Both the position numbers and the translations under genes were made by a program. 64,000 nt of DNA from a virus, in the IMG/VR virus record IMGVR_UViG_3300032173_000003, positions 23,021 through 87,020 of that record; one strand, given 5' to 3'. Numbering within the stretch: position 1 is the first letter of the stretch; the number at the start of each line of letters is the position of its first letter. Below the pieces are notes generated by a model. That model ran no database searches and had not been told where the DNA came from. It was given only the letters and a program-made list of their open reading frames with translations. Shown one piece after another: positions 492 to 62,788 of the stretch.

Positions 492-896
492 CTACTGCTT
501 TACTCGGATACAGGAAACACCTGTCTCTTTTTCCACAGCCTTGCAGTTTTCCTCCTTATCGTCATACATTACGATGTTGTCTCCGTAGTTTTTTCTAAGG
601 ATGTTAATCTGTTCGACTTTGACTTCAGGGTCAGGGCGCGAGTCTCCGTGGCCACGCATTAGAACGTGCTTGGGTTTGAGGCCCATCTTCTTCAACCAAG
701 TTTCCGTAAGCTTCCTTGACTTTTCGTCACGAGCCGTAGTTATTACGACGGTACCTTCTGAGGGGCGTTGAAAGAACAGGGCCAGATTAAGAATCTTGTC
801 GTTAGGCTCCAAGTCTAAAATGTCCACTCCGGGTTGATTGATTTTGGTCAACGTTTTGTCAACGTCAAAAGCATAGACGGTAGGACTTTTCGCCAT
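492..896 (-). CDS. HAD-family phosphatase, T4 Pnk 3'-phosphatase-like
   Basis: FDVDKTL (DxDxT), ITTAR, MRGHGDSRPDPEVK, YDD motifs. Confidence 0.8.
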   Translation of the reverse strand: MAKSPTVYAFDVDKTLTKINQPGVDILDLEPNDKILNLALFFQRPSEGTVVITTARDEKSRKLTETWLKKMGLKPKHVLMRGHGDSRPDPEVKVEQINILRKNYGDNIVMYDDKEENCKAVEKETGVSCIRVKQ

Positions 897-2297: not shown

Positions 2298-2792
2298 TCA
2301 GTTATGTATGTATTGTACCACGGAAAAACCTTCCTTGTCAACCCCCCTCAAGGATGCCAGTAAGCTCTGGAACATCTTGTTGATAACATGCTCTGGGACT
2401 TGACGGGAACGGGCAGCGTTGCGGGATAGGCAGTCTGCTAGCGGGGTGTTGACTATCACAGCTTCCACCTCGGAATACCCGTAGCTTTGAAGCAAGGTCA
2501 GGGCGTCTCTCCGGTAGCTAGCGCGATAGTGAGTACCGTCCATGATAATGGTGCGGCCTACGTTCTCTTCCAAGGTTTCAACGATTTTGTCATGGATCTC
2601 CACCCAGTTGCCCTGAATGTTGGCATCACCGTAGAGTTGCTCACGGATGGTATCGCCGCAGATTACTACAGCACCTGGGTGCTCGGCTTTCAGTTTTTCA
2701 GAATGGGTTGATTTGCCGGAGCCTGGCGCCCCAACCATTACAAATGCTTTCATTGTTCTTGTTTCAATAAAGACCGGGCCACGGGGCCTCAA
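2298..2792 (-). CDS. P-loop kinase (AAA_33, Pnk 5'-kinase-like); likely start MKAF near 2753
   Basis: MVGAPGSGKST Walker A, DTIRE, MDGT, RNAARSRQVPEHVI lid. Confidence 0.85.
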   Translation of the reverse strand: MRPRGPVFIETRTMKAFVMVGAPGSGKSTHSEKLKAEHPGAVVICGDTIREQLYGDANIQGNWVEIHDKIVETLEENVGRTIIMDGTHYRASYRRDALTLLQSYGYSEVEAVIVNTPLADCLSRNAARSRQVPEHVINKMFQSLLASLRGVDKEGFSVVQYIHN

Positions 2793-6416: not shown

Positions 6417-6444
6417 TTTGTGAGTTTACTTGTTGTCGGTTAAA

Positions 6445-7442: not shown

Positions 7443-8127
7443 GTTTCATCCTCTCACTTTGAGCTTTTTTGTCTTCTTCAGACCATTTTTTATATGGTCC
7501 CCTCTTCTTACCCGTTCGGGAAGCAGACATTTTAGCCTTAGATTCCACAGAAGCTTTCTTACCCGTAAGGGATTTCCTAAGTTTGTCTTTAGTTTCTTCT
7601 GTCAGGGTAACTCCCTTTCGGGAGCCGGGTTTACCTTTCTTGGCCTCCGAAACTTTTTTAGCCACTTTTGGATCTTTCATCGGGTTGTTGTTTTTCATTC
7701 GCTCTGAGTGAGCTTTTTTCATCTCAGGGGTCATCGGGGCCTGATTTTTGCCCTGATAGTCTGGGTTATTCGGGCCTCTAAACTTTTCTTTAGACTCCTC
7801 TGACCAAAACCGTCCAGGAACTCCCGGTTTGCCTCTACGTTGAGCGGCAACTTTTTCCGCAGTCTCTGGATTTTTCATAGGGTTTTCTTCAGTTTTAAAT
7901 CTTCTTGAGTGTTCCGCCCTGACTGCTGCCCTTAGTTCGGAGCTAAGGTATCTCCAACCCTCGTGCCTATAGTCAAACTGTCTATCAAGTCCCTGTACGT
8001 ACCTGTTAGCGTGGAGTTCAGCGTGAGTAATGAAGTCAATTTCCTCTAGGTTCCAGTCGTCGTCAGTGCCCCCTAAGTGCCGGGGTACTACGTGGTGATT
8101 GTGGTTTTTCATTATTTTGGCCAACAA
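7411..8127 (-). CDS. HNH homing endonuclease with NUMOD3-like DNA-binding repeats
   Basis: HHVVPRHLGGTDDDWNL...HAELH; SEETKDKLRKS-type repeats. Confidence 0.85.
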   Translation of the reverse strand: MLAKIMKNHNHHVVPRHLGGTDDDWNLEEIDFITHAELHANRYVQGLDRQFDYRHEGWRYLSSELRAAVRAEHSRRFKTEENPMKNPETAEKVAAQRRGKPGVPGRFWSEESKEKFRGPNNPDYQGKNQAPMTPEMKKAHSERMKNNNPMKDPKVAKKVSEAKKGKPGSRKGVTLTEETKDKLRKSLTGKKASVESKAKMSASRTGKKRGPYKKWSEEDKKAQSERMKLVQKRRKENG

Positions 8128-13695: not shown

Positions 13696-13814
13696 TGGGA
13701 CCGGCAGGATTCGAACCATGCAACCACTCCTTTAAACGAGGTATTTTTTAATTGCTGATGTATCTTGTACAAGATAACTTTTATTTAGTGCTCTACCAGT
13801 TGAGCTACGGTCCC
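13696..13814 (-). ncRNA. tRNA-like RNA (Lys-like body) with stem-CAGCAA module in anticodon arm
   Basis: GGGACCG/CGGTCCC acceptor, GCTC/GAGC D arm, TTCGAAT T loop; insert TATCTTG-TA-CAAGATACATCAGCAA. Confidence 0.75.
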
Positions 13815-13918: not shown

Positions 13919-14041
13919 TCGAAGAGGCAAGATTCGAACTTGCGTATAGCGGTTCCCTTAGTGTATTTAATTGCTGAATCATCTCTATCGAGATAATTTT
14001 TTTTTTACATGACCGCTGCCTGACCACTCGGCTACTCTTCG
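13919..14041 (-). ncRNA. tRNA-like RNA with stem-CAGCAA module in anticodon arm
   Basis: CGAAGAG/CTCTTCG acceptor, GCGGT/ACCGC stem, GCAAG-TTCGAAT-CTTGC T arm; insert TTATCTC-GATA-GAGATGATTCAGCAA. Confidence 0.75.
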
Positions 14042-14159: not shown

Positions 14160-14278
14160 TCGGGGAAGAAGGAATCGAACCTCCGTCACGTCCTGTCTGA
14201 TGGAATTTTAGTAATTGCTGTCTGTACCTTAAACAAGATAACTGTTAATTACGTGTGCTACCACTGCACCATTCCCCA
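14160..14278 (-). ncRNA. tRNA-like RNA with stem-CAGCAA module in anticodon arm
   Basis: TGGGGAA/TTCCCCG acceptor, GTGC/GCAC D arm, TTCGATT T loop; insert TATCTTG-TT-TAAGGTACAGACAGCAA. Confidence 0.75.
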
Positions 14279-14901: not shown

Positions 14902-16368
14902 TCACGATAACCCGAACGCTGTACCAACTGGGGCGTAACGCTCGGCATAGACCGCATTCTTCATAACCTCGATGGGAGTAATCACCTTGCCGGTAAGAAC
15001 CGATGTGAGGATTGAAGGGCTGCAGCCAGAAACAAGGCAAGTGCCCGTATCGTGCATCTTCATGGGGACGTTGCCCCCGGCGTTAACATTCCAGAACACA
15101 AGCTCAGGCAAAGAATATCCAGCTTGGGCGTACTTGATTCGGATTGCTTCAAAGTTTGTAACTGAAGCCCCTGTGCAACACCGGTCAAACTCCATGTCTG
15201 AAACAATGATGAGCTTGCGGGGCATGTCTCCTTCGGGGACATTGTTTCTAACCGCAGTATTCAACACCAGGTTAAATACCGCTTGAAGGTCCGTACTCAT
15301 CCCCCAAGCTGCATTGGAAAGGTTCCTGATGCGTTGGGCAATTGTTTGACCAGTTACAGTTTGCAGTTCGGGAGTTGAAGAGAAAGTCAAGAACTTGTCT
15401 TTCCAGATCCCAGTGTTGCGCTCCGAGATATACATCGCCATAGAGATGGAAACTGCCATAGGAGTTCCATACATGGAGCCAGAGACGTCAGCAACAACAA
15501 GTCCGTTAAACTCTTGACCCTCCATGTAGTTAGGCAGAGCCTCCCACATTAGGTTCAGGGTTTGGTCACTGGATTCACCTTTGTTCAGGTACTTGTCTAC
15601 GATTTCGTAAGGATAGATGGTGCCAGCATTAATCTTAGCCTCACCCTTTTCAACAGCATTGAGGTACGTTTGGTAACGTTCCCCATCACGTTTTGCGAAA
15701 GCCTTGCGATACATAAAGCCAGCCCGAGAAGGCAACTTGCTGTAATCAATATTTTCCCATTCACGGGAGCACATTGCTTGTTCGACAATTCGGATTTGCG
15801 TACGAAGGGCGGTGAGAGCCTTGCGGTATTGGCGCTCAGACCAACCCATTGCTTCGGCAATCTTGCGGCCGATGCGCTTTGATTCTTTACTGGAAGCATT
15901 AACCGAAGGCAGCCACTTTGCAAGTAGGGAAACAGAGTTTCCTACTTCCGTATTCAAGTCAGTGGTAAGCTGAGTCTTGATGGCGTTCAAGGCAACATCC
16001 CAGACCAGGGTTCCCTCAAGTACCACCAAGTCGTCCCAACGTCCGAACTCAGGAATCAGACCGACAAGTTTAGCGCCGATTGTAGCGTCACTGCGCACAA
16101 GTTCCTTAAACAGTTCACGGAAGATTTTGCGCTCACCTTGGCCTCCACGAATGTCGCGAGCCCAAAATAGAATCCTGGCTGCAGTTTCTGCGTCTTCGGC
16201 GTAAGCCAGGTTGAATAGGCGAACGGCTTCAGGCACATTGTCACGGCAGGCCGCAATCTTACCAAAAAGGTCAAGATTCTTGGAACCTGTGGACTTATAG
16301 GCTTTTGCGCCGTTTGCAGTCGTGGTGGTATTGAAGTTGTTCTCTAGAGCGTTTAGAAATGTCGTCAT
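14902..16368 (-). CDS. DUF2828 family Ro60/TROVE-like protein with C-terminal vWA domain
   Basis: TANGA..STGS..LDLF, FWARDIRGGQGER, GRWDDL, SLLAKWLPS, VADVSGSM (MIDAS), SDMEFD, VFWNV, VSGCS. Confidence 0.85.
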   Translation of the reverse strand: MTTFLNALENNFNTTTTANGAKAYKSTGSKNLDLFGKIAACRDNVPEAVRLFNLAYAEDAETAARILFWARDIRGGQGERKIFRELFKELVRSDATIGAKLVGLIPEFGRWDDLVVLEGTLVWDVALNAIKTQLTTDLNTEVGNSVSLLAKWLPSVNASSKESKRIGRKIAEAMGWSERQYRKALTALRTQIRIVEQAMCSREWENIDYSKLPSRAGFMYRKAFAKRDGERYQTYLNAVEKGEAKINAGTIYPYEIVDKYLNKGESSDQTLNLMWEALPNYMEGQEFNGLVVADVSGSMYGTPMAVSISMAMYISERNTGIWKDKFLTFSSTPELQTVTGQTIAQRIRNLSNAAWGMSTDLQAVFNLVLNTAVRNNVPEGDMPRKLIIVSDMEFDRCCTGASVTNFEAIRIKYAQAGYSLPELVFWNVNAGGNVPMKMHDTGTCLVSGCSPSILTSVLTGKVITPIEVMKNAVYAERYAPVGTAFGLS

Positions 16369-20143: not shown

Positions 20144-20444
20144 TTGATCTCATTGATTTGATGAAGGGCCTAATGAAAGCCCAAGCCGTTTTAGCTATGT
20201 CCACAAGGAGAGGCTCTTGGGCGTCTACCCCAGGTTTGGGGAGACGGGGCTCATACCCAACAGCATCGGGACCGCATAGTTTTTTGTTTTCTCTAGCGGT
20301 CAGGCACCAATATTCGTCTTTGGTTGATGTTCCGTGCAAATAGTTATCGACGGTGAAAGTGTACTTCTTGCAGGTGGGGGTGAAATCATCGCTGTCATCG
20401 CAATGCTCGCAACTGTAGCAGGATTTTAAGGGGGTGTCAGTCAT
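20136..20444 (-). CDS. Cys-rich hypothetical protein
   Basis: SCYSCEHC...WC..R...CG. Confidence 0.6.
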   Translation of the reverse strand: MTDTPLKSCYSCEHCDDSDDFTPTCKKYTFTVDNYLHGTSTKDEYWCLTARENKKLCGPDAVGYEPRLPKPGVDAQEPLLVDIAKTAWAFIRPFIKSMRSND

Positions 20445-20903
20445 GGTCGGTGTTTATCAATCATAGATTTCAGTCTCGTTTTCAAGTTTGTTCAAGACGG
20501 TTCGGCGGGTCGGGATGCCAAGGGCCATTCTCAGGGTGTCCACCTCGTGAATGAGCAACCTCACCATGTCTAATGGAGCAACTTCACACTCAGGGTAAAC
20601 CTTGCTGACTTCTGAGGCGATGCGGAGGTATTCGGCCCTGTAGTAGTCTATTTCGTTTGGGATTGTCATTGCTCAACAGCAGTGTAAGGTGTAAACCCCA
20701 GCTCAAAAAGGTCCCCCTCCCTGTTGACGTATAGAAGTTTAGGCTCCTCACCGTCCGGATACCACCAAGCAAACCGGTTTCTCACAATTTTAAGTCTTTC
20801 TGACGGGGAGGTTTTCCCCCTTAACAGCGTGTAAATAAGGCCGTCAGGGTACTGAGTACAGGGGGGTAGCAGGTTCACGCCTTTTGCGCCATCGAACCCG
20901 GCT

Positions 20904-21191
20904 TCAGTTGGTGTCATCATTGTTATTTGTGTAAGGTCCAGGGATAATCCACTGTAGGTTTAAACTTTTGCATTGGGCGCAGAATTCATCGACCCCTTCA
21001 GCCCAAACATACCCGATTCCACGGGCATTTACGTAAATTGAGTCAGTGCCGGTCTCACATCGTGTGCTACAAACATCTCGGCACCCTTCATAGTCTACAA
21101 TGCAAACCACGGATTGGTTTTTTGCCAGCTCATACAAGGTTGCATAGTCTGAAGATAAATTGTAACCAGAAATGTCTCTTACTGAGGTCAT
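20904..21191 (-). CDS. hypothetical protein
   Basis: 95 aa ORF. Confidence 0.55.
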   Translation of the reverse strand: MTSVRDISGYNLSSDYATLYELAKNQSVVCIVDYEGCRDVCSTRCETGTDSIYVNARGIGYVWAEGVDEFCAQCKSLNLQWIIPGPYTNNNDDTN

Positions 21192-24516: not shown

Positions 24517-25551
24517 TTAGTTTTTGTTCTTTAATAGCCATTCGTTACTAATTACTTTGAATGAGAATGAGGAATCGTAGGATTTGAATACCAGACCTTC
24601 GCGCTTGACTTCAGGATTTAAAGAAGGGCCAGTGGCATAGCTGAGCAATGCTTCGACATTATCAAAGCGGCTAGCCACATAAGTGCGCAAATCCCAGATT
24701 GGAGTGTGCTCAAGGTTGGCCCCAAGGGCAATCAGAATGTCCTCAAGGAAGGCAAGACGTTGACCGGGCTTCATGTAGGTCCCGGCATCAATGTCAAAGA
24801 TGTCAAACAGGTACAGGCGTTGGCCTTGAATTTTTTCCTGATTACCCTGGATTCCTTCGCCAATGAGTTCACCTTGGATAGCCACATTGTGGCCAGTCCT
24901 TTTGTTGTAAGCAAGCAGTGCCTCAACGATGTTTTGATCTCGGGCAGCTTTCCAGAAACTGTTCCCTTCTGTCTCTATCAAATCAAGGTTACGGCTGCAT
25001 ACACCGACCTCTCCATCCTTGACGTAGATTGTGCAAGAGGAGCCGTCGAGTTTGATAGTGACCTCAAAGGACTCATCTTTGTGCTTCTCAAAAATGTCCG
25101 AAACAACGTTCTGGCAACGTTCCTGGTCAGTTTTTGGAATGAAGCTGGGGAAGTTGCCCCTAGCTGTACCTGCAAGGCAGGCAGGGACAGGTGCTTCCCA
25201 TTTTTGAATGCCCAGGGTTTCTGTAACATCGGTTCCAGGGTCACGGAAGAAGCTAAGCTCTACCGGCAGCAAAAGCCCCTGCGACAAAGTACCCCTGAGT
25301 CGGATAGTTCTCAAACGTTCACCTTTCACCCCATTATATTCACGGGGCTCTTTGCCTTTACTGAGGAATGGGGCAAGTTCGTGGGGGATCCATGAATCCA
25401 CCTCACAATAAATCACAAGGTCGTTTACTTGATACTTATTGATAGTATCAACAACCCACCAACCATCTACCCGATAAGCACAAATCTTATCTGCTTCTGG
25501 AATCGGTTTAATTTCTTCAATTTCTCGGATTGTTGCCAGTTTTCGTGTCAT
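24517..25551 (-). CDS. RNA ligase, DRB0094/Rnl2-like family
   Basis: RKLATIREI, SQGLLLP, PKTDQERCQN, KLDGSS (motif I), QGELIG, REGLVFK, FKVISN. Confidence 0.92.
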   Translation of the reverse strand: MTRKLATIREIEEIKPIPEADKICAYRVDGWWVVDTINKYQVNDLVIYCEVDSWIPHELAPFLSKGKEPREYNGVKGERLRTIRLRGTLSQGLLLPVELSFFRDPGTDVTETLGIQKWEAPVPACLAGTARGNFPSFIPKTDQERCQNVVSDIFEKHKDESFEVTIKLDGSSCTIYVKDGEVGVCSRNLDLIETEGNSFWKAARDQNIVEALLAYNKRTGHNVAIQGELIGEGIQGNQEKIQGQRLYLFDIFDIDAGTYMKPGQRLAFLEDILIALGANLEHTPIWDLRTYVASRFDNVEALLSYATGPSLNPEVKREGLVFKSYDSSFSFKVISNEWLLKNKN

Positions 25552-29320: not shown

Positions 29321-30415
29321 TTAGATACCTAAAAGGTTGTCAAGTTGGGTGGGCCTAAGGGAACCTAACCACTGGCTAAAGTTGCCGTATTTGCCAGCAC
29401 GGAGAGCGAAACAAGCCCCAGAAAGTTCTTTGGACTCAGCTAGGACAACTTGGGCAAAGTCCTTCTGGTTAAGGTCTTTGTGGGCCGCAACAGTGGCATT
29501 TACCCAATGTCCCATCGTTTCGATAGAAGCAATGTAGGAATCGAATTGCTCCTTGTACTCGGGGAAATGAAGCAGAAACTCTTCTAGGTCGTCATTGAGA
29601 AACAACTCAGAGAAGTCCGGCTCACCGTTACCACGCACCCTGTGCAACTGGCAATAAACATCAGATTTTGCCTTAGCCCGCCCTGAGCCATCAAAGAGGA
29701 CAAACCCCTCATGGTCTGCTCCACGATTGTTAATCACGGACATCAAACCTTCCATGCTGCCAAAGTCATATGACTTTGCAACTTCGTAACCATGTTGCAG
29801 ACCAAAGTCTTCCAGGTCCAGTTCTTCAAAGTCCTGGGTACGGTCCCTAACAGCAAGCAGCGGTAGCTGCGGCTCAGCGTAATCCACTACAATGCGGTTG
29901 TCACGGTGGCACAGTTCAAAAATGTAGCAAAGGTCTGGATCCAGAACTTCTCGGGAATAACCAACTCCGTCGAAGACGGACCAGAACAACTCAGCAAATG
30001 AGCGCCCAGTCGCACCAACCTCTGCAGCAGCCGCAACTGTACCGGAGGTTGAAACAATCCATTCACCCCCATAGTTGAACATTTTTATTAGCGAGCCATC
30101 ATACTTTTCATAGACCTTGGTACTAGACCAGTCTAGTCCATGACAGTGGCCTTCGCCAACGTTGAAGAACCGGTCGAAAGCATACGCCGCTAGCTTGTAA
30201 CAGCCTGTGCTGTCACGCTCCACTACCGCACCACGGCAAGCGCAAACTAGCGGATTTGATTTATCCGCCAGTATAGAGCCGTATTTCAGGTTGAAGAGAT
30301 TCGGGTAGCGCTCATCTCGGCCGACACGAATGTCGTACTCAGCCAGTTCTTCCAGGGCATTAGAGCCCCGCTCATTCAGCCAGCCAATGAGGTAGTGGCG
30401 AAGATTCAGTTCCAT
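29321..30415 (-). CDS. T4 Rnl1-like RNA ligase
   Basis: CRGAV, FDRFFNVGE, EKYDGSLI, FEL, NRIVVDY, EGFV. Confidence 0.88.
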   Translation of the reverse strand: MELNLRHYLIGWLNERGSNALEELAEYDIRVGRDERYPNLFNLKYGSILADKSNPLVCACRGAVVERDSTGCYKLAAYAFDRFFNVGEGHCHGLDWSSTKVYEKYDGSLIKMFNYGGEWIVSTSGTVAAAAEVGATGRSFAELFWSVFDGVGYSREVLDPDLCYIFELCHRDNRIVVDYAEPQLPLLAVRDRTQDFEELDLEDFGLQHGYEVAKSYDFGSMEGLMSVINNRGADHEGFVLFDGSGRAKAKSDVYCQLHRVRGNGEPDFSELFLNDDLEEFLLHFPEYKEQFDSYIASIETMGHWVNATVAAHKDLNQKDFAQVVLAESKELSGACFALRAGKYGNFSQWLGSLRPTQLDNLLGI

Positions 30416-30445: not shown

Positions 30446-30931
30446 TTAATCGTAACAGTACTGCATCCATTCCGGGACCTTGTTAAGGGTGCGGGAAGAG
30501 AATCGGATGTTTGGAGACGTTGGCCTCTTCATCAAAGGGACGCCCCATTCTTCAGGGGTTCGGTTGTCTTTGGTGTTGTTACAATCAACGCAAGCGCACA
30601 CAAGGTTTTGCCACTCATCTTTACCACCCCTTGACTTAGGGATTATGTGGTCAATAGTTAGCACATTCTTGGAGCCCCCGGATGTGCCGCAGTATTGACA
30701 CATGAAGTTATCGCGATGTTTGATTCGCTTGGGCGTGGGCTTACCTGCCATAATCCGGCCGAGGGGTAACCTAACGTAGTTAATCAAGCGGATAACCCTT
30801 TGGGAAACGACCCTCGCCTTGTTCTTCAAGACCAAAATAACTGCTCGGCGCCAGGAAGTTTCGTTGATTGGCTCATACGAACTATTAAGAACCAAGATAG
30901 TTTTTCTGTATGTCAGTTGGAGCGCATCCAT
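30446..30931 (-). CDS. HNH endonuclease (McrA-like)
   Basis: LVLNSSYEP, RDNFMCQYCG, TIDHIIPKSRGG, NLVCACVDCN. Confidence 0.9.
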   Translation of the reverse strand: MDALQLTYRKTILVLNSSYEPINETSWRRAVILVLKNKARVVSQRVIRLINYVRLPLGRIMAGKPTPKRIKHRDNFMCQYCGTSGGSKNVLTIDHIIPKSRGGKDEWQNLVCACVDCNNTKDNRTPEEWGVPLMKRPTSPNIRFSSRTLNKVPEWMQYCYD

Positions 30932-38204: not shown

Positions 38205-38490
38205 GTGCAATGAGTCAGAGTGCGGTTGCTCAAACGGCAACGGCAATCCTCTCGAATTTGACGATTTTGTTAGCGTCTATTTTGTGCTTATGCAAGCGGC
38301 TTTCAGTGATTGGCTTGCTGTCGGTCGATTCCAGAGCGGACCCGTGGTGGAGAGGTGGGATTCTAACCCACATTAGACCTTTCCCCATGAGTAATAGTGA
38401 GGGAGAGCGGTCTAAGTTCTCTCAATGGATCCGAGGCGATTCGAACGCCTGTGTCGCTCAGTAGTTACAATCACCTACACCCAGTTTATA
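38205..38490 (-). ncRNA. ssrA: permuted two-piece tmRNA
   Basis: 3' part GAC-AC-AGGCG-TTCGAAT-CGCCT-CGGATCCA (ends 38426) precedes 5' part GGGTCCG-CTCTGGAATCGAC (starts 38343); G3-U70 pair; tag frame 38274-38230 ANKIVKFERIAVAV*. Confidence 0.88.
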
Positions 38491-49592: not shown

Positions 49593-50175
49593 TTATTCCG
49601 GGAGGAATCAATCCACAATCATGGACCATTCTTCCTGGGAAGGGAATGCCTCGTCGTCGGCACCAAACATCATGTACCGGTTGTAATCGGAGATTTCGCT
49701 GGAAGTCATTCCTTCGTAGGAATCACGCCCAGCCATCGTGTTGGCTCTGACTTGGGCAACGGCGGTGGCAGCGGTCACGGGGCTTCTCTTCGGGACCCCT
49801 CTATTGTAGCACAATTTATGGGCGGAACAACTGCCGTAGATGCTCCTTATGCTGCTCAACACGCTCCCGTCGCTCTGGGCTAAGGCCCTCGGTAAGGTCG
49901 GAGAATGGCCTAGCTACGTTCCCAGAATGCAAATTATTGAGGGCATCCTGCACTCCTTCACCACCGTAGGTGGGGTCAATGCAAAGATTTGTGGGAGTTC
50001 CTGGGCGAGTGAACAGCGATTCCAGTTTCTCTGAGATTTGCTTAATTTCTGAAGCGGCCAAGCCATTGTGACCTACTGCATCTAAGTAACCTTTCAGGTA
50101 GATGCAGAAGTCTTTAGCGGAGTCCAATTGGTTGAGGTTTAACATTTTGCTCAGGTAAAGTTTCAATGAGAAAGG

Positions 50176-50264
50176 CGGAAGAGATAGGATTTGAACCTAC
50201 GGAGCCGCTTGCACGACTCGGCTGCTTTCCAAGCAACTGCCATAAACCACTCGGCCACTCTTCC
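50176..50264 (-). tRNA. tRNA-Ser(GGA)
   Basis: Loop TTGGAAA, long variable arm. Confidence 0.95.
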
Positions 50265-50290
50265 TCAAACGGTTTTCGTAAGAAAACCAA

Positions 50291-50379
50291 CGGAGAGCCA
50301 GGGATTCGAACCCTGGGAGCCACTTTCGTGACTCAACAGTTTAGCAAACTGTCGCCTTCAGCCACTCGGCCAGCTCTCC
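50291..50379 (-). tRNA. tRNA-Ser(GCU)
   Basis: Loop TTGCTAA. Confidence 0.95.
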
Positions 50380-50449
50380 TCATTTTGTTACCTTATTATC
50401 ATAGCCCGGTTTCAGGCGAAAGTCAAGGGGGGTTACCCCATCAAAAGAA

Positions 50450-50534
50450 CGGAAAGGGTGGGATTTGAACCCACGGTGCCTTTCGACACGCTAGTTTTCA
50501 AGACTAGAGCCATAAACCACTCGACCACCTTTCC
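50450..50534 (-). tRNA. tRNA-Ser(UGA)
   Basis: Loop CTTGAAA. Confidence 0.95.
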
Positions 50535-50559
50535 ACAGTCAAAGTCCGCATTTGCGGAA

Positions 50560-50692
50560 AGCCCGATGTCAGATTTGAACTGACGACCTATCGCTTATTG
50601 CAACCAACAGGAATCGAACCTGAACAATGCCAACTGAGACATTGAGACCGCTGGGAACCAAGGCGAGTGCTCTACCACTGAGCTAATCGGGC
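50560..50692 (-). tRNA. tRNA-Thr(UGU) interrupted by 61-nt insert in the anticodon
   Basis: Removing 50598-50658 gives GCCCGAT..CTCGC-CTTGTAA-GCGAT..ATCGGGCT. Confidence 0.75.
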
Positions 50693-50723
50693 GCATCTTA
50701 TCTATGTTTTTCCATTAGGAAAA

Positions 50724-50797
50724 AGTTCCAAGCCGGATTTGAACCGGCGAATGCGAGTTTTGCAGACTCGTGCCTTAAACCTCTTGGCTACTGGAAC
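50724..50797 (-). tRNA. tRNA-Cys(GCA)
   Basis: Loop CTGCAAA. Confidence 0.95.
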
Positions 50798-50814
50798 ATT
50801 TGATGTTTTTTTTT

Positions 50815-51351
50815 TTAACCGGAATTGCACCCCCTTTGTATTCGTTTCCTAACAGCATTGTCACTTACCCCAAAAAGTCTTCCGGTACCAGTGTAACCGT
50901 TTTCCATTACTAACCTTTGAAGTTCAGTAATTGAAGGCCAGTTTACTATTTCCTTACTTTTTTGAGAACATTTGAGAGAACAAAATTTTTGACCCGTTGA
51001 GATAGACTTCCCACATTGTTTGCAAGGGTGTTTAGTTTTTTCCGGAATTTGTTTTTCCGTGTATTCTTCATTGAACCGGGTAATGCTATCGGGAACGAGT
51101 GTTATACCTGCATGAATCTCACGATGGCAGTTAGAACAAACACAGATACATTTCCTGAGTTCGTTGATAAACCTTTCTCTGCTTACGGTAGATGCAGAAG
51201 TAGCAAACTCTTTTACTGTTGGGTCAGTATGGTGAAACTCTAGTGCTTCGACGCATTTATAATACCCGCAAATTCCGCATTTGCTACCAAAAGCTTCTAC
51301 AGCTCATAGTTTCCGTCTTTGTCGAAACTGAACTACTTTTTTACCTGACAT
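50815..51351 (-). pseudogene. HNH endonuclease with in-frame TGA at codon 16
   Basis: MSGKKVVQFRQRRKL*AVEAFGSKCGICGY..ALEFHH..KCICVCSNCHREIH..CKQCG..FCS; absent from the ORF track. Confidence 0.8.
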
Positions 51352-52737: not shown

Positions 52738-52805
52738 TAGACCGCACGGGGTTCGAACCCGCAACCTTCACCGCAGTGATGCTCTGCCAATTGAGCTAAC
52801 GGTCA
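52738..52805 (-). ncRNA. tRNA-like RNA with tetraloop instead of anticodon loop
   Basis: Normal D and T arms; TCAC-TGCG-GTGA. Confidence 0.65.
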
Positions 52806-53937: not shown

Positions 53938-54055
53938 AAACCAAGGTTGGACTTGAACCAACGGCTTGCTTTACCCTCCGGCATTACGGTCCTTTACCGA
54001 GGCTCTCTTAGAAAGCCTGAGGAGGTTGCTGCTCTACCAACTGAGCTACTTGGCT
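53938..54055 (-). ncRNA. tRNA-like RNA with multi-hairpin domain replacing the anticodon arm
   Basis: AGCCAAG/CTTGGTT acceptor, intact D and T arms; CCTCC/GGAGG enclosing two hairpins. Confidence 0.65.
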
Positions 54056-54063
54056 TATCTCAA

Positions 54064-54657
54064 CTACCACGCTCTAAGCCGCATGGCAGGCAAATTATCA
54101 ATTTGACCAGCCCCCATTGTTAGTGACAACTTTAGTGTGCGATGGCGCAATACATGCTTCATCACCCACCCTTGCCGCAGGTATCGGTCTTGAGTTCCAA
54201 CCGGCAGCGTATCAAAATCGCGAATTGTTCCACGGCACAGCGCAGAGCCACACTGACAGTCTTTCATTTCCCAATGCCGTTCCAGCATTGTTGTGCTGTA
54301 GTCGATGACTAATTCCTCGTCAGCTTCAATACGCCGAGCAGCTACTAGCCATAGATCAGAGTTTATGTAGCAGTTTGGATGGCAGGAGTGATTGGTGTAC
54401 AGACCTGGAGCTTCGGGATTGAGGTACAAGTCCTCTCCAATTTGAAGCGTATTAGCTTCGTCGTCTATCTGGCACTGCTCATTGAAGCTCAGGCGTTCAC
54501 CTTCAAACTTCAGAAGCAATTCCCCCTTAGGCACTGGTGCCACGGCGAATATGCCACGACCCAAGCGGCACTTTCTGACTTGGACGCAGGGGAAACGCTT
54601 TCCGTGTGCTACATTGATCAATAATGCTTGCTCATCGTCCACGTGGATATCCCCCAA
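54064..54657 (-). CDS. SET-domain (post-SET) methyltransferase
   Basis: GRGIFA, YTNHSCHPN, EELVIDY, CQCGSALCRG. Confidence 0.9.
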   Translation of the reverse strand: MGDIHVDDEQALLINVAHGKRFPCVQVRKCRLGRGIFAVAPVPKGELLLKFEGERLSFNEQCQIDDEANTLQIGEDLYLNPEAPGLYTNHSCHPNCYINSDLWLVAARRIEADEELVIDYSTTMLERHWEMKDCQCGSALCRGTIRDFDTLPVGTQDRYLRQGWVMKHVLRHRTLKLSLTMGAGQIDNLPAMRLRAW

Positions 54658-55720: not shown

Positions 55721-55789
55721 TGGGGGAGGCAGGATTCGAACCTGCAATGAGTACTCTGCGATGGGCTTTACCAATTTGCCTACTCCCCC
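55721..55789 (-). ncRNA. tRNA-like RNA lacking a canonical anticodon arm
   Basis: GGGGGAG/CTCCCCC, D arm GGC/GCC, perfect T arm. Confidence 0.6.
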
Positions 55790-55879: not shown

Positions 55880-55950
55880 TTGACACGGCAGGAGTCGAAC
55901 CTGCTACCGCTGACTTTTACGCCTCAGCTCTACCGATGAGCTACGTGTCG
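55880..55950 (-). ncRNA. tRNA-like RNA with non-canonical anticodon arm
   Basis: GACACG/CGTGTC, D and T arms intact, TGA-GGCGTAAAAG-TCA. Confidence 0.55.
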
Positions 55951-57390: not shown

Positions 57391-58581
57391 TTAATCAGTA
57401 TAAATGATTGCCTCGCAAAGTTCATTAATGATGGAGCGGTCAATGTTCCCTGGCAAAACACACTCATTTTTAATAACGTGCTCTGACAGCTCAAACAACT
57501 GGTTAACCATTTGGTTTAGCTCACCGTAGGAAACCCTGCCATACTTAATGTCCAGGAGCAGCTGATGGTCCCCAGCCCTTTTCCGGTTGACAATGATTTC
57601 CCCGGTACGCAATCCTTCAATAGCCATATTCATCAACCTAACGCAATGGCTGGCATTTTTACCATCGTACCCGCAGACCCTCTCAATTTCCGAACGTTTG
57701 ACGTTACGATTCGTTAGCCAATCCTGGTAGTTGCTCCAACGTTTGCAATCAGAGCGGTACTGCTGGCTAGCCCTAAGCAACGCCATGTAATCGTCGTTAG
57801 CCCTGGTCATTTCCTGGGACAAGTCAAAGCATTCATCCGGGAGGATGCTTTGCTTAAGGACTCCTTTCCAATCAACCCTGTCATTCAGAAGCTCATACAA
57901 ATCCTTGGCCACCTGGTAATACTCAATTCTGTCTTTAATCAGCAGATACAAGTATTCAATAAAGGCTTCGATCTGGGTGCTTGCAAGGTTACTGGATGGA
58001 ACCCCATAGTCCTCCCACTCAGGTTTTTTCATAGGGGGGTCAAGCAACCACTTCCTGTGAGTCTCCATCTTTTTGATTTGAGCCCGTGCATACTGCACAA
58101 AGGTTCCCGCAATCTTCTTTGAAATCAGCCTGTGTTTGTTTTCAACTAGGATTTTTCCAAAGTCATTGATGTAGATGTAATCTTGAGGCTCTTGCCACAG
58201 CATTTCCAGAATGTTTGGGTTTTGTGACTGTAGCAACCTTAGGTAACGCCTAACTTCGTAAACAGCCGTATCTGAACCATCAAGTTCTGGGAACTTTGAC
58301 TTAGGGGAGGGCTCAGCGTCCCAACCCTTATCCTTCTGCTCAAACTCTTCTAGGGAGACGTAGAACCTTAGTGGGGCAATACAAATCCCTTTATAGTCCC
58401 TGTCAGACATTTCCGTGTTAAGACCATAAGCATGGGACCCTGACGTACAGAACAGGATCATGCCGTCTTCAATTTCTTTCCTAGTGATTGACATTTTTCT
58501 CTGTGTCAGGATACATTGGGCCAAGTATAGATAACCGGGGGCACAGCCCCAAAGAACCCTTGCAGCCAGGGGCACAGCCAC
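57391..58581 (-). CDS. Pol-beta superfamily nucleotidyltransferase (RlaP/YcgL-like); likely start MSIT near 58494
   Basis: SGSHAYGLNTEMSDRDYKGI, NPNILEML, GYDGKNASHCVRL. Confidence 0.85.
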   Translation of the reverse strand: MAVPLAARVLWGCAPGYLYLAQCILTQRKMSITRKEIEDGMILFCTSGSHAYGLNTEMSDRDYKGICIAPLRFYVSLEEFEQKDKGWDAEPSPKSKFPELDGSDTAVYEVRRYLRLLQSQNPNILEMLWQEPQDYIYINDFGKILVENKHRLISKKIAGTFVQYARAQIKKMETHRKWLLDPPMKKPEWEDYGVPSSNLASTQIEAFIEYLYLLIKDRIEYYQVAKDLYELLNDRVDWKGVLKQSILPDECFDLSQEMTRANDDYMALLRASQQYRSDCKRWSNYQDWLTNRNVKRSEIERVCGYDGKNASHCVRLMNMAIEGLRTGEIIVNRKRAGDHQLLLDIKYGRVSYGELNQMVNQLFELSEHVIKNECVLPGNIDRSIINELCEAIIYTD

Positions 58582-58856
58582 ACTGGCATATCTGTGAGAC
58601 GGTCTTTGTAGTTGGTGCCAGAGTCATTTGTGGATATGAACTCCAAAGCTGTGATTGCTTCAGGGAACGGCTCAGTGTCAAGGGTGAAGGTCATTTGGTC
58701 TCCAACCTTAGGCTGATTACCCGTAGCGAGATAATAATAGTAGTCGATTGCAGCTTCGGTCCCATTCATTAGGGCCTCACCCACGGTATCCCCGTGGGCA
58801 TGGTCAAAGGCCCAGATTCCCTGGGTTGTCTTGTACGGATTGACAATAAGTCTCAT
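58506..58856 (-). CDS. DUF6717-like protein
   Basis: NPYK..GIWAFD..EAL..G; VWLCPWL..FFG..P..IY. Confidence 0.7.
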   Translation of the reverse strand: MRLIVNPYKTTQGIWAFDHAHGDTVGEALMNGTEAAIDYYYYLATGNQPKVGDQMTFTLDTEPFPEAITALEFISTNDSGTNYKDRLTDMPVWLCPWLQGFFGAVPPVIYTWPNVS

Positions 58857-58883
58857 TTTTCTGTAGTGAAAGATCCGTGGGAA

Positions 58884-59594
58884 TTAATACCCGGCCAGGG
58901 CCAAGTTGCGACCACCCGCAGCTTGCTTATTTAGCGAAACACTGGAGCCAGAGCTGTAACCAGCCTTGGCACCGTCGCCTTTGCAATAGGAGGTTCCACC
59001 TTTACTAAACTTGCGTTCAGCGACAGCAAGCGCAGTTGCATCTGCGTCGTCGTGTTTCCGGTTGTCTACTTCTTTCATTTCACCCAAACGTCGGGAAACC
59101 CTTGAGGAGAAAGCTTTGCGGAAATTTGCCTTAAATCCCTTCGACAGGGTACCACCAGTTAGTTCAGCAAGGATTTTCTCAGCTTTGTGGGCTTTGTCGC
59201 ACTCTTTCTCCATGACTCCCAGCAGGAAATCGTAATAGAGTCGGGTCTGAATTTGCTGCCCTTCCGACCCAATGACAACGAGAGATTTCTTCCCGTTACG
59301 GACAGACTTGGAATAAGCCACAGCGTCGTAAAAGATGGCCACAGCATTCAGCAAAATGCCCGCTGCCACGCTGATTTTACCGCCTTCGAAAAAGACTTCA
59401 TCCGTCACCCTAACCTCAGTAGCTTCAGTGACAGTGACTCCGTATTGCTTGCAAAGACGGTCAATAAGGTTGGCGGCAGCGGCAGCTTCACCGTCAAAGT
59501 CAGTATTCTCTTGGAGAGCCAGCATTGCCTTGATTTTGGCGAGGGCTTGAGTGCGGTCCATGGTAGTTCGTCGCTTACTTCTTAATGGTAGCAC
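58884..59594 (-). CDS. DUF2786-like protein
   Basis: KIKAMLAL...EAAAA..L...Y N-terminus. Confidence 0.7.
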   Translation of the reverse strand: MLPLRSKRRTTMDRTQALAKIKAMLALQENTDFDGEAAAAANLIDRLCKQYGVTVTEATEVRVTDEVFFEGGKISVAAGILLNAVAIFYDAVAYSKSVRNGKKSLVVIGSEGQQIQTRLYYDFLLGVMEKECDKAHKAEKILAELTGGTLSKGFKANFRKAFSSRVSRRLGEMKEVDNRKHDDADATALAVAERKFSKGGTSYCKGDGAKAGYSSGSSVSLNKQAAGGRNLALAGY

Positions 59595-59632
59595 GGGGGG
59601 TCAGGTGCTGTCAACCTTTTGTAGAGCAAAAG

Positions 59633-59821
59633 TCAGTAAGGCCCCGGAAAGCATTGCTGCCAGTGAGCCAATACTGTGGCCGCTTCCTGTTTGGTAAGCT
59701 CTGGATACTCTCGCACCAGGTAAGGGCGGGCACCAAACATGTTGGTTTCTCCGCTCTCTCGCAAATCGTCCAGGTATTCCAAGTATTCAATTTTGATGAA
59801 ATCGGGCGCTTCAGTTTTCAT
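59633..59821 (-). CDS. conserved phage hypothetical protein
   Basis: YLDDLRESGETNMFGARPYL; paralog at 59811..60056. Confidence 0.7.
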   Translation of the reverse strand: MKTEAPDFIKIEYLEYLDDLRESGETNMFGARPYLVREYPELTKQEAATVLAHWQQCFPGPY

Positions 59822-60007
59822 GTGCTTTCTCTAAGTATTTGTAAGGGTTTTCAATGAGCCATATGCGGAAGATGGCATCCGCCTGTTTCGGGGAGAGATT
59901 CGGGAATCTTCTAGTTAGGGAGGACTCTATGTTAAAAATGTTTACTTTTTTGTTATCCCTTAGGAAAGTCAAGTAGTTCAAGTGAACTTCTATTACGGGC
60001 ATTGCGG

Positions 60008-60862
60008 TCATAGGGACAAGAACCAATCCAATGATAACTTGTCCGGGGGCACCCATTCGGACACCACTGTTCGGATAACCGGCTCAGTCGGTTTGTATGC
60101 CTCGGGGATTTTCTCCAGGGATGGATCATCCGGCTGAATAAGGACTCTTTGCCTACGGACATAGGTTCCGTGAGTGAAGAACCTGGGCAGCTCCTCCCAA
60201 GGATTACCCGAGTTGCGGAGCAAATCCTTCATCTCATTGCAAGTTTCCCCTTGGAGGAACTTATGTGAAAAATGATGGTAGGCATACATAGACACAGAGT
60301 TCTTAGTAGCATCATTCAACCGCCACAGGAAGTTCTTGTAAACATGCTCAAGGTCTGGCACGTTCCATACTCGGCAATCAAACACCGGGTATTGTCCGAC
60401 TTTTTCCGGCAGATACCTTGGGAGGTTGCCGGCAAAGAAGGAGGATGCCGTGGCTGCCAACACTGAAGTCAATTTCTGAAACTTGCCACCGAACCAATAC
60501 TCCCTATTTGAATACTGCTCCTTGTCCAGGTGCCAGTATAAAGATATTTCGTCAGATTGGCAAAACCCGAGCAAAGCCTCACTCTCTTCAACAAGGTGCT
60601 TAGTTGTAGCAACCATCAGGCGAACAAAACGTTCGTCAAATGGGCGCTCCAACCCCTTAGTGAATTTGGAAAAGCACTTGCCGTCAATGCGAGCCATCAA
60701 CGGGAGGTAAGGATTTGCCTTACGTCCTGCCTCTGCCTGCTCTTGAACCTTGAGTAAATCCCCAAGGGTATCCTTATAGTTTGATTCAGTCATTTGAAGT
60801 CTTTCCATTGCGGTGTCTGCCCACAGTTTTGTTTTTCCAACGGGTAGCGGGCAACCACACAA
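60008..60862 (-). CDS. thg1: tRNA(His) guanylyltransferase Thg1-like (3'-5' polymerase); likely start near 60793
   Basis: ARIDGKCFSKFT, QSDEISL, GGKFQKL, FDCR, WRLNDATKNS. Confidence 0.9.
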   Translation of the reverse strand: MCGCPLPVGKTKLWADTAMERLQMTESNYKDTLGDLLKVQEQAEAGRKANPYLPLMARIDGKCFSKFTKGLERPFDERFVRLMVATTKHLVEESEALLGFCQSDEISLYWHLDKEQYSNREYWFGGKFQKLTSVLAATASSFFAGNLPRYLPEKVGQYPVFDCRVWNVPDLEHVYKNFLWRLNDATKNSVSMYAYHHFSHKFLQGETCNEMKDLLRNSGNPWEELPRFFTHGTYVRRQRVLIQPDDPSLEKIPEAYKPTEPVIRTVVSEWVPPDKLSLDWFLSL

Positions 60863-61038
60863 TTCTGGTGCGCTTCCAAAGAGTTTAGATAGAGGTCGGA
60901 CTTAATTTGAAGAATGTCCCGCTCTTTGCAGTCACTTTGGTTTTTGTATGGGCACGGTTGAGGATTAGGTTTAGGTTCCTCGTGGCTGCACCCTGTTAAA
61001 ATAATAAGGGGCAACACAATCAATAGCAGATACATCAA

Positions 61039-62406
61039 TCAATCCTCAATAACGTGTAAAGTTTTGGCAGCTCTCGTCATACCCACGTAGGCCAGCTGAT
61101 TCTGGATATGTAAAGGATAAGCATCATCAATGTCCCTATGCAGGAACACATTTTGAAAGGTTGAACCTTGACTCTTGTGAATAGTTAGAGCCGATGCAGG
61201 TTCCAGTTTGCCAACCAAGTCCTTTCGCTTAAAGAAGGCTCCCCACTTACTTTTCCGACTCCCGATGTCTCTGGCTGCTTTTGCTTCCGCAGCCATCTCA
61301 TTTAGCTTGAAGAACCAACGTTTTTCTTCACTTTTGTCTAAAACCCTTATGTCAACAACAGAGTCTTTGTTTGTAACAGGGGCGGCCTTAAGCAGCCAGG
61401 TATCCCAGAGAGAATCATCCAGGGAATCACCCGGAAACTTCATCTGCTCAGGGGTCGCACCCAAAATGTAAACATCCTCCGTACTGTTAAACAAAGGGGT
61501 TTTACCGTAAGGGTCAGGGATAGAGTCCACAGTTACGCAAATCATCCCTGGAACGAACGTAGGGGCTTCTTCCCCGTATCTTTCCTCATGGATCATCTTA
61601 TTCAGCCTGCTAACGTCGGCATTGGTCCAGGCCAAAGCCCTACAGAAATCTGGATCTCCCATAGCTTCCTTGGACTTCATCACTTCCAGCAGATGCCTCA
61701 GCCATTTGGTATAGGTTGGGTGAGCAATCACACTTGACCCCCCACCGTCCGAACTGGCGAAAGGTGCCCTCCCCTTCCCTAGCTCCCTGGTGTTAGTGGC
61801 AAGATTCAAGATAGCCCCATCGTGACGTAATACCTCAGTGAGCTTATAGGTAGACGTTGCCTCAGTGAATGCTTTGCAAGCACCGTCTTCCTTCACAGGG
61901 AACAATTGCCTGTCGTCTCCCACGAAGATTACGGGTCTGTCCCCCGCTTCCTCTTTCAGCATTGCGTAAAGCTCGGAGTTAATCATTGACGATTCATCAA
62001 TGATGACTACGTCCGGTCTTTTGTTTTTACTTTTACTAGAAGGGTTAAGCAGATTGCCCGCTTTGGTGTCCGGGGCAAAGGATTCCTTACCATCATCTTC
62101 GCTACGCACTTGCTTAAGGCCCAGCAAACGATGGATCGTAACGACTTCAAAGCCATTGGCACCATTCCTCAGCAAAGCCCTTTCTACTTGAAAGCGGGCT
62201 TTATGCGTCGGGGTTGCTACGATGACTTTTAACTTTTGGTTAGAGAGGCGGGACACCAGGGCTGCTGTGGTTACGGTTTTGCCCGTGCCTGCATAACCGC
62301 ACAGCATAGGTCTTGCCGCTTTCTTCTTAATGTCTAAGAGGATGCCTGCAACAGCTTTTTCTTGATCGTTTGTCAGTTTCATTTGCTTATCGTAAAGTGG
62401 CACCAA
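61039..62406 (-). CDS. Dda/RecD-like SF1B helicase
   Basis: GYAGTGKT, ATPTHKA, IDESSM, VGDDRQL, TIHKSQGSTF, YVGMTRA. Confidence 0.9.
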   Translation of the reverse strand: MVPLYDKQMKLTNDQEKAVAGILLDIKKKAARPMLCGYAGTGKTVTTAALVSRLSNQKLKVIVATPTHKARFQVERALLRNGANGFEVVTIHRLLGLKQVRSEDDGKESFAPDTKAGNLLNPSSKSKNKRPDVVIIDESSMINSELYAMLKEEAGDRPVIFVGDDRQLFPVKEDGACKAFTEATSTYKLTEVLRHDGAILNLATNTRELGKGRAPFASSDGGGSSVIAHPTYTKWLRHLLEVMKSKEAMGDPDFCRALAWTNADVSRLNKMIHEERYGEEAPTFVPGMICVTVDSIPDPYGKTPLFNSTEDVYILGATPEQMKFPGDSLDDSLWDTWLLKAAPVTNKDSVVDIRVLDKSEEKRWFFKLNEMAAEAKAARDIGSRKSKWGAFFKRKDLVGKLEPASALTIHKSQGSTFQNVFLHRDIDDAYPLHIQNQLAYVGMTRAAKTLHVIED

Positions 62407-62788
62407 AGGAAGTCCGGAAGGTATCCCATGCCACTGGTTGAGTCACTTTGAAGTGATGGTAGATTTGCTTAATAGCAAATTCCATACGTTCCCGCCCCAC
62501 AGGATTAGCAGAATGGACTGTCATCACTGGTGGGATGAAGGGATTGTAAAAGTCAAATGCTAGCTCAAACACCCTTTGTTCCACATAAAGACAAACATCG
62601 TAGCCGGTGCCAGCTGCGTCCGGTCCCAGATCATGGTCCAGGGACAAGTGCGTTACTTTGCCGGTTTCCAGCATCGCAATAGCTTCGGGGGCTGTGTATG
62701 CCCGTACCCAGCCTTCAGGGGTGGGCCGCTCATCATCAAGGAAGAGTTTCATTGCCCAAACTTTTGGGCATAAGAGCGAATAATCCAT
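62387..62788 (-). CDS. cyclic-phosphate-processing receiver-like domain protein
   Basis: LFLDDERP..GW, LSLDHDLG, TGYDV, VHSANPVG. Confidence 0.8.
   Translation of the reverse strand: MDYSLLCPKVWAMKLFLDDERPTPEGWVRAYTAPEAIAMLETGKVTHLSLDHDLGPDAAGTGYDVCLYVEQRVFELAFDFYNPFIPPVMTVHSANPVGRERMEFAIKQIYHHFKVTQPVAWDTFRTSFGATLR

Follow-up and report, generated by a model that had tools for sequence, protein, structure and literature searches.

How can a phage obtain a working threonine transfer RNA (tRNA) from a gene that is broken in the middle of its anticodon? The question is posed by a tRNA gene at positions 50560–50692 of a 64,000-nucleotide (nt) stretch of viral DNA—positions 23,021 to 87,020 of IMG/VR record IMGVR_UViG_3300032173_000003—which we call the window and in which all genes lie on the minus strand. 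An earlier reading of the sequence (the original prediction) had described this gene as the window's only tRNA-Thr, split in its anticodon by a 61-nt insert, and had left a choice between an intron spliced by proteins and a nested decoy. From comparison with other viral contigs, we conclude that the insert is most likely a tRNA-shaped (minihelix) intron that splits the phage tRNA inside its anticodon.

Read on the minus strand, exon 1 runs GCCCGAU-UA-GCUC-AGUGGUA-GAGC-A-CUCGC-CUUG and is followed by the 61-nt insert and then by exon 2, UAA-GCGAU-AGGUC-GUCAG-UUCAAAU-CUGAC-AUCGGGC-U. Pairing in the outer tRNA is 7/7 in the acceptor stem, 4/4 in the D stem, 5/5 in the T stem and 4/5 in the anticodon stem (CTCGC/GCGAT), and the insert sits inside the anticodon, between nucleotides 35 and 36 of an otherwise complete tRNA body. 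Deleting 50598–50658 restores tRNA-Thr(UGU), as had been claimed, and yields a 7-nt loop, CUUGUAA, provided that the 3′ cut follows the insert's 2-nt AA tail. No CCA is encoded in exon 2, the 3′ end of the outer gene reading ...ATCGGGC-T-TTC.

The interrupted gene is missed by ARAGORN in its default mode (32 genes in the window) and by the Rfam tRNA model. With introns allowed (ARAGORN -i), a gene is called at exactly 50560..50692 with an intron of 61 nt, in line with direct reading of the sequence, the cut being placed one base later so that the product becomes Pro(UGG). We rejected the proline identity: the body has G1-C72, C2-G71 and U73; among 40 matches listed, both halves correspond to annotated phage tRNA-Thr and neither to a tRNA-Pro; and uninterrupted homologues in four sequencing runs read TGT, with the junction CUUG/UAA. 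ARAGORN found no second tRNA-Thr in the window or in the 87,020-bp (base pair) contig, which is 31% complete according to CheckV, in keeping with the gene's description as the sole tRNA-Thr of the window. The accompanying claim that the other 19 amino acids all have uninterrupted tRNAs needs correction: ARAGORN finds such tRNAs for 18 amino acids in the window, leaving Asn as well as Thr without one.

The limits of the insert are set by the uninterrupted look-alikes in those four runs, which join 50597 directly to 50659 without ambiguity. A pattern built from features of the outer tRNA only recovered the same interrupted gene from a second viral contig (G002). Just 8,524 nt, in 25 pieces of 73% identity, can be aligned between this contig and the one that contains the window (G000), and the flanks of the interrupted tRNA cannot be aligned between them. 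The exons are identical at 70/72 positions (exon 1 at 34/34, exon 2 at 36/38), and the two differences in exon 2 amount to a compensatory change from an A-U to a G-C pair in the T stem (GUCAG/CUGAC versus GUCGG/CCGAC). The start of the insert, GTTCC, and the 15-nt inner T arm are likewise identical, and the middle has been remodelled by insertions and deletions, from 61 nt in the window to 44 nt in G002, where the extra hairpin is absent. Because the exons are nearly identical in two contigs whose flanks do not align, we conclude that the outer tRNA-Thr gene is under purifying selection and that the insert is old; the insert is also structurally constrained. The original prediction had suggested comparing the locus in related phages and had allowed that the insert might prove unique and unconserved, which it is not: it is conserved in G002, together with its gene, and belongs to a large class described below.

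Conservation also bears on whether the gene is simply dead, tRNA-Thr having been destroyed when a small piece of DNA, for instance a hairpin or tRNA-fragment cassette, was inserted by mobility or recombination. Close relatives differ in whether they carry intron-bearing genes, and a 10-kilobase (kb) contig of a related phage, from an RNA library, matches the gene on either side yet contains 90 different nucleotides where the window has 50563–50718, so that the interrupted gene has been replaced there, possibly by an ordinary tRNA; both facts suit an insertion, as do homing-type nucleases (HNH at 30446–30931, NUMOD3 at 7411–8127 and an HNH in the tRNA cluster of contig G001) and inserts elsewhere that lack the shape of half a tRNA (L067/L184 and L126, below). 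However, the exons and their compensatory pair have been kept although neutral DNA is saturated between the phages; the inner part has no anticodon arm, so it offers no replacement tRNA; and mobility of the element would be compatible with splicing. We therefore give the loss of the gene very little credence.

Other searches added few loci. An exact 25-mer of the insert had 0 matches in viral_contigs; the records of cultured and deposited phages contained no match to the insert, nor to the interrupted genes of the G001 type described below. A 116-amino-acid neighbouring protein, used as an anchor, led to no relatives' loci. The gene for a SET-domain (lysine methyltransferase-like) protein, which lies in the middle of the tRNA array at 54064–54657 (minus strand), led to 2 loci, neither with the interrupted gene and one with an unrelated intact tRNA-Thr(UGU); the protein is 76–77% identical in two viral contigs without the tRNA array.

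Within the insert (coordinates in Table 1), both stems named in the original prediction, CAATGTC/GGCATTG and CAGG-TTCGATT-CCTG, are present, at 50644..50625 and 50622..50608. The closing stem (50651..50658 against 50607..50600) is paired at 6/8 positions, with 2 mismatches, and its 8 positions join the 4-bp T stem with a gap of 0 to make a 12-position stack capped by the 7-nt loop UUCGAUU. The fold of the whole RNA beats 200/200 shuffles (z = −3.18); that of the insert alone is less convincing (z = −1.97, with 8/200 shuffles equally good). In a nearest-neighbour model with the outer tRNA enforced, pairing probabilities are 0.97–0.99 for the CCAG/UUGG part of the closing stem, 0.57–0.59 for its G-C and U-G end pairs and ~0.09 for the inner T stem; it is comparison rather than folding energy that argues for the inner T arm.

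The tRNA introns known to date from bacteria and phages are group I ribozymes, a precedent for a self-splicing or self-cleaving ribozyme here. The insert, at 61 nt (44 nt in G002), falls well short of a P3–P8 core, usually at least 200 nt, and matches no Rfam family at E ≤ 1, whether group I intron, other intron or ribozyme; the original prediction had already judged it too short for a group I intron, and we assign a ribozyme next to no probability. On inspection, no bulge-helix-bulge pairing, with the splice sites in two 3-nt bulges separated by 4 bp, could be drawn around 50659/50658 and 50598/50597. The YrlA model (RF02553) had no match over 50560–50692, its only matches being sub-threshold and on ordinary tRNAs.

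Evidence on the nature of the insert also comes from other genes. The outer-tRNA pattern and relaxed forms of it, together with ARAGORN -i on whole contigs, recovered interrupted tRNAs of unrelated sequence, among them those of a family of 107–120-kb phages (G001, G003–G006) with 1–4 interrupted tRNAs per genome (3–4 in G003, G004 and G006). Architecture was assessed on 11 independent inserts chosen through outer-tRNA patterns, with insert structure ignored. In 8/11, the closing stem begins at nucleotide 1 of the insert and the hairpin abuts the 3′ strand of the stem without a gap; of these conforming inserts, 7/8 have a hairpin loop of 7 nt and 7/8 a stem plus hairpin of 11–12 bp (9 bp in L057), and 0–4 of 500 shuffles score equally when the start of the stem is fixed at nucleotide 1. 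The acceptor-plus-T stack of a tRNA is 12 bp. The G002 insert follows the stem rule fully, at 6 + 6, with 1/500 shuffles equally good. L078 goes further, its insert being a small, nearly complete tRNA whose "anticodon" loop has 5 nt. A half-tRNA shape is lacking in L126 and in L067 (also found as L184, in a Parcubacteria metagenome-assembled genome); L067/L184 is a tRNA-Arg(UCU) with a 61-nt GC-rich double-hairpin insert at 35/36, which may be a different kind of element.

Sequence variation within the 107–120-kb family bears on the same structure. A G003 gene (L291, 1535–1683) has the same tRNA body as L049 (600–745) but differs from it in having CTTC for CTTT before the insert and G for A after the stem, a compensatory change from a U35/A to a C35/G pair. 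In this variant the stem includes nucleotide 35, the cut moves to 34/35, the tail gains one A and the loop is still 7 nt. The compensatory change shows that the intron stem is real and includes nucleotide 35, by which reckoning the mature anticodon of the L291/L049 gene would be UAU (Ile), as against the UUU or UCU called by tRNA finders. Across the G001 family, 324/324 pair cells of a 36-pair structure stay paired, and the 16 intron pairs include 5 GU-compatible changes and 1 double change. A 312-amino-acid open reading frame (ORF) that adjoins the interrupted tRNAs of G001 has no Pfam, PHROG or PDB relative.

Several inserts end in N-CCA or something close to it (ACCA, UCCA, ACAA, ACUA). A scan of viral_contigs for an inner T loop followed by 12 nt, CCA, 3–4 nt and the 3′ part of an outer tRNA returned at least 120 loci; the 5′ strand of the stem was taken as the best complement within 160 nt upstream, and an outer anticodon stem was sought only afterwards. 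Among the matches listed, these loci held 59 intron-containing tRNA calls (ARAGORN -i), and in 30 of the 39 distinct CCA inserts the outer stem was flush, in accordance with the 7-nt loop rule, the loop being split (before the stem, after the CCA) as (4,3) in 18 cases and (3,4) in 12. The restored loops, again among the matches listed, read UUU, UAU, GAU, GUU, UCU, UAC and UGU, and 29/30 of them end in U36 A37 A38, from which it follows that these are tRNAs for codons that start with A. A second scan, for tails without CCA, gave 49 loci and 16 distinct inserts that passed the filters, 8 of which have a 1-nt tail and 4 loop bases before the stem; one locus (L425), a Thr(UGU) gene of a 332-kb phage, resembles the window gene in its 2-nt AA tail and is the one other such example. 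In genome_contigs, at least 120 loci were reduced by the filters to 4, namely 3 tandem tRNAs and 1 Parcubacteria insert.

The tail also follows the style of the gene that carries it. Neither scan put any constraint on the 3′ end of the outer gene, yet among the matches listed a CCA is encoded by the outer gene of 28/33 CCA-type introns and 0/9 CCA-less introns, a match with a hypergeometric probability of ~5e-6 when the outer tRNA was verified in full. In the window gene, CCA is absent both from the outer 3′ end and from the intron tail. A hand tally among the matches listed found U at −1 in 28/33 CCA-type introns. Dozens of unrelated phage tRNAs recovered by the pattern scans share one build, in a class that is widespread and barely described, and the window insert is a CCA-less, somewhat degenerate member of it with a weak stem.

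The splice sites of these introns coincide with the points at which tRNAs are trimmed: one lies where the 12-bp stack begins on its 5′ side, the other where the discriminator or CCA tail stops. Because of that coincidence, and because the tail follows the local style of 3′ end, we propose that the nested half-tRNA is handled as a tRNA would be. Cleavage by either RNase P or RNase Z leaves a 3′-OH and a 5′-phosphate; bacterial RNase P prefers U at −1, RNase Z prefers U right after the cut, and a nicked anticodon loop is a substrate of Rnl1-type ligases. The enzymes that mature tRNA ends in the cell would read the half-tRNA as a tRNA: RNase P would cut just before the stack, so that G35 ends in a 3′-OH, and an RNase Z-type 3′ endonuclease would cut after the tail, leaving U36 with a 5′-phosphate. 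The acceptor, D/T and anticodon stems would hold the exon halves together, making of the break a nick in the anticodon loop, and the phage's Rnl1 or Rnl2-like ligase (Table 1) would seal it to give tRNA-Thr(UGU) with the loop CUUGUAA. Neither kinase nor phosphatase would be required, as the nick would already carry a 3′-OH and a 5′-phosphate. We infer, rather than observe, the removal of the insert and the identities of the cutting and sealing enzymes; the complete scheme—excision by RNase P and an RNase Z-type enzyme, sealing by a phage RNA ligase—has in our judgement an even chance of being right, and we are more confident that the insert is removed in some way.

The original prediction had envisaged a protein-spliced intron handled by the phage's Pnk and ligases, possibly after cleavage by a nuclease. 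The intron itself is favoured by the comparison, and the contig encodes both the healing parts and two RNA ligases; the route through a nuclease and Pnk is not required, as the build of the insert points to tRNA end-trimming enzymes that leave 3′-OH and 5′-phosphate ends. On that route, another phage or host endonuclease, perhaps with the nested half-tRNA as its target, would cut the intron out, the 2′,3′-cyclic phosphate and 5′-OH ends would be healed by AAA_33, HAD_PNKP, Metallophos and cREC proteins, and Rnl1 would seal them, T4-style Pnkp/Rnl1 repair being used as splicing. Every healing and sealing part is encoded in the contig: besides those of Table 1 there is a Metallophos esterase (PF00149), and the T4-type heal-and-seal set of Rnl1, kinase and phosphatase is complete, its role on this tRNA being putative. 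Moreover, the only proteins common to G000 and the unrelated G005 are Rnl1, a Pnk-like kinase, cREC and a UvrD helicase, and in G005 the kinase and Rnl1 genes are one small ORF apart. Missing from this account is a candidate nuclease: EndA (PF01974) has no match in the contig (31% complete), RtcB was found in 0/21 of the genomes or records searched, and there is no bulge-helix-bulge by inspection. It also gives no reason for the insert to begin exactly at the foot of a 12-bp stack or for its tail to match the outer gene in CCA style, and a phage would be expected to carry these enzymes in any case, to counter host anticodon nucleases. We consider this route unlikely; the AAA_33 kinase is needed only if the cuts leave a 5′-OH.

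The distribution of ligases bears on the proposed sealing step. Rnl1 is also present in G002 and in G003–G006; among near-complete genomes of the G001 family it occurs in 4/4, and a 336-amino-acid kinase-domain protein adjoins it there; a PF09414 ligase is present in 6/6 near-complete genomes with CCA-less introns.

Several observations weigh against excision by end-trimming enzymes and sealing by a ligase. Only sub-threshold ligase matches were found in 3/6 near-complete genomes with CCA-type introns, and an RNA ligase, counting matches over the family cut-off, is not clearly more frequent in intron-bearing contigs (8/16) than in pattern-matched contigs without a recognised intron (5/13), many of these contigs being fragments or close kin. 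The shared Pnk kinase and cREC would fit cyclic-phosphate ends at least as well. The window's tail is 2 nt long, so that cleavage immediately behind the discriminator would give a loop of 8 nt and the proposed cut has to fall one base beyond the usual RNase Z site; for the CCA-type introns, we know of no bacterial endonuclease that generally cuts exactly after CCA. The window copy is also the weakest of its class: its closing stem has more mismatches than the 1 that the automated rule allows, and the energy model favours another pairing over its inner T arm. Lastly, a 61-nt skip seen in one RNA run, at a depth of 4 and with a 27-nt side, recurs identically in three DNA runs (all compared over 50100–51100 as contigs rather than raw reads), for which reason it most likely derives from uninterrupted genes of other organisms.

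The nested decoy of the original prediction would be an unspliced, non-decoding 133-nt mimic with two tRNA elbows that ties up or diverts tRNA-binding enzymes or tRNA-cutting defence nucleases, or else a source of a half-tRNA that RNase P and RNase Z set free to act as a small RNA. Such a role would suit two features of this phage, its free-standing tRNA-shaped RNAs that lack a normal anticodon loop and its large set of tRNA-repair genes. A decoy, however, has no need to keep the loop halves CUUG and UAA, and it leaves unexplained both the restoration of a 7-nt loop with U33, A37 and A38 in members of the class and the G003 variant, in which the split shifts by one base at both ends together. 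We judge it distinctly unlikely, and retain the minihelix intron as the better account.

Table 1. Parts of the interrupted tRNA-Thr gene and RNA-processing genes of the same phage (window coordinates).
Feature	Position	Strand	Basis
Whole interrupted tRNA-Thr(UGU) gene, 133 nt	50560..50692	−	ARAGORN -i and direct sequence reading
Exon 1: acceptor 5′ strand, D arm, anticodon stem 5′ strand, C32 U33 U34 G35	50659..50692	−	sequence
61-nt tRNA-shaped insert (putative intron)	50598..50658	−	boundary from uninterrupted homologues joining 50597 to 50659
Acceptor-like stem, 5′ strand GUUCCCAG, from the insert's first base	50651..50658	−	homologous stem in G002
Extra hairpin CAAUGUC-UCAGUU-GGCAUUG, variable middle of the insert	50625..50644	−	seen in every fold
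Inner T-arm-like hairpin CAGG-UUCGAUU-CCUG	50608..50622	−	15/15 identical in G002
Acceptor-like stem, 3′ strand UUGGUUGC, directly abutting the inner T stem	50600..50607	−	sequence, folding
Unpaired 2-nt tail AA, discriminator-like, without CCA	50598..50599	−	sequence
Exon 2: U36 A37 A38, anticodon stem 3′ strand, AGGTC, T arm, acceptor 3′ strand, discriminator U	50560..50597	−	
T4 Rnl1-family RNA ligase, candidate sealing enzyme	29321..30415	−	PF09511, E = 8.3e-18
Rnl2-like RNA ligase, RNA_ligase plus PHA02142 OB fold	24517..25551	−	PF09414, E = 8.6e-26; PF21189
Polynucleotide-kinase-like P-loop kinase (AAA_33)	2298..2792	−	PF13671, E = 3.9e-22
PNKP-type HAD phosphatase (HAD_PNKP)	492..896	−	PF25109, E = 1.4e-9
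cREC receiver domain, cyclic-phosphate processing family	62387..62788	−	PF20274, E = 1.4e-26

The contig is unusually rich in RNA-repair genes and looks, from its gene content, like a cyanophage (PstS-like binding protein, OprB/SLH porin, permuted transfer-messenger RNA). Adjoining the tRNA array on the minus strand is a cluster (57391–62788) with the nucleotidyltransferase RlaP (57391–58581), a DUF2786 protein, a Thg1-like 3′–5′ polymerase (60008–60862), a PIF1/AAA_30 helicase (61039–62406) and cREC, which resembles what Burroughs and Aravind call an RNA-repair module.

Several other RNAs of the window deserve mention in their own right. The four free-standing tRNA-shaped genes without a normal anticodon loop (52738–52805, 55721–55789, 55880–55950 and 53938–54055, all on the minus strand) belong to the tRNA array, close to the genes for Thg1, RlaP and cREC, and include a form with a 4-bp stem and 4-nt loop, one with a 6-nt loop and a 2-nt "anticodon" and a 118-nt form with an expanded anticodon region. 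Three further tRNA-shaped RNAs of ~120 nt (13696–13814, 13919–14041 and 14160–14278, minus strand; 41–46 bits against the Rfam tRNA model) have ~57 nt in place of the anticodon loop, with a common CAGCAAT motif and a small hairpin, and depart from the minihelix-intron rule. They lie just downstream of the gene for a DUF2828/DUF7788 protein (14902–16368), of which they may be Y-RNA-like partners; G002 has four copies, at 20158–20904. The permuted, two-piece transfer-messenger RNA lies at 38230–38475 (minus strand; Rfam RF04321, 55.8 bits against a gathering score of 47) and was not reported by ARAGORN. Finally, a 92-nt tRNA-Ile(UAU) at 6444–6535 (minus strand) has a long extra arm, unusual for Ile, and is conserved in G002 (14992–15083).

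In the textbook view, bacteria and phages have only self-splicing tRNA introns, and protein-dependent tRNA splicing belongs to archaea and eukaryotes. The class to which the window gene belongs fits neither category and has been noted once in print, without explanation in the passages on which we draw. Its three rules—a 12-bp stack that begins at the splice site, a tail that copies the CCA or non-CCA end of the outer gene, and a restored loop of 7 nt—make for a precise biochemical prediction: a single transcript treated with RNase P, RNase Z and a ligase should yield the mature tRNA. If so, phage RNA ligases would gain a housekeeping substrate besides damage repair, and the under-counting of phage tRNAs by standard finders would be explained, the window tRNA-Thr being invisible to ARAGORN by default and to Rfam. 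More tentatively, and with somewhat less than an even chance of being right, we suggest that bacteria and phages have a third pathway of tRNA splicing, in which RNase P, a 3′-end endonuclease and an RNA ligase act on minihelix introns in tRNAs for codons starting with A (Thr, Lys, Ile, Asn and Arg-AGA).

Set beside known systems, the window gene resembles bacterial and phage genes with group I tRNA introns in that its insert sits in the anticodon loop of a bacterial-type tRNA gene, but those introns are ribozymes of at least 200 nt with a conserved core, and the insert is 61 nt long with no Rfam match. Like archaeal and eukaryal tRNA introns, it would be a short intron of the anticodon loop, spliced by proteins and in need of a ligase; those introns usually lie at 37/38 and rely on a bulge-helix-bulge motif, EndA and either RtcB or Trl1, whereas the window gene is split at 35/36, with no such motif by inspection. 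In T4 infection, damage by the PrrC nuclease at 33/34 is repaired by Pnkp and Rnl1. The likeness here lies in a break in the anticodon loop of a tRNA for a codon starting with A, with putative sealing by an Rnl1-family enzyme, and the contig encodes Rnl1 and Pnk-type parts; unlike the T4 break, which is made at 33/34 by a host nuclease, this one would be programmed by the gene, would fall at 35/36 and would entail removal of a piece. tRNA-shaped folds also mark RNase P and RNase Z cuts in the mitochondrial tRNA punctuation model, in plant mitochondrial t-elements and in MALAT1 mascRNA. In such systems (for the t-elements, we draw on part of the account in PMC1920247) the flanking RNAs are simply released, whereas here they must be rejoined, and the signal lies inside the anticodon of another tRNA.

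The closest parallel, and the only printed precedent that our literature searches found, is in the Lak megaphages, for which 'enigmatic' short non-ribozyme tRNA introns have been described (Devoto et al., 2019, Nat Microbiol, PMC6784885; 10.1101/356790). Those searches found no mechanism or rule for such introns, and the passages of that account on which we rely, our comparison being with its descriptions, propose no mechanism and state no structural rule. According to the same passages, the intron of the Lak tRNA-Thr(TGT) 'itself may encode a tRNA', some alleles have no intron, and the software prediction misses the true boundary by one base (PMC6784885), just as the ARAGORN boundary for the window gene is off by one base. 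As far as those passages go, the Lak introns belong to Prevotella megaphages of ~540 kb and the window gene to an unrelated, cyanophage-like contig, where the insert, unlike the Lak intron as described, is reduced to a stem and a T arm with a 2-nt tail and no CCA.

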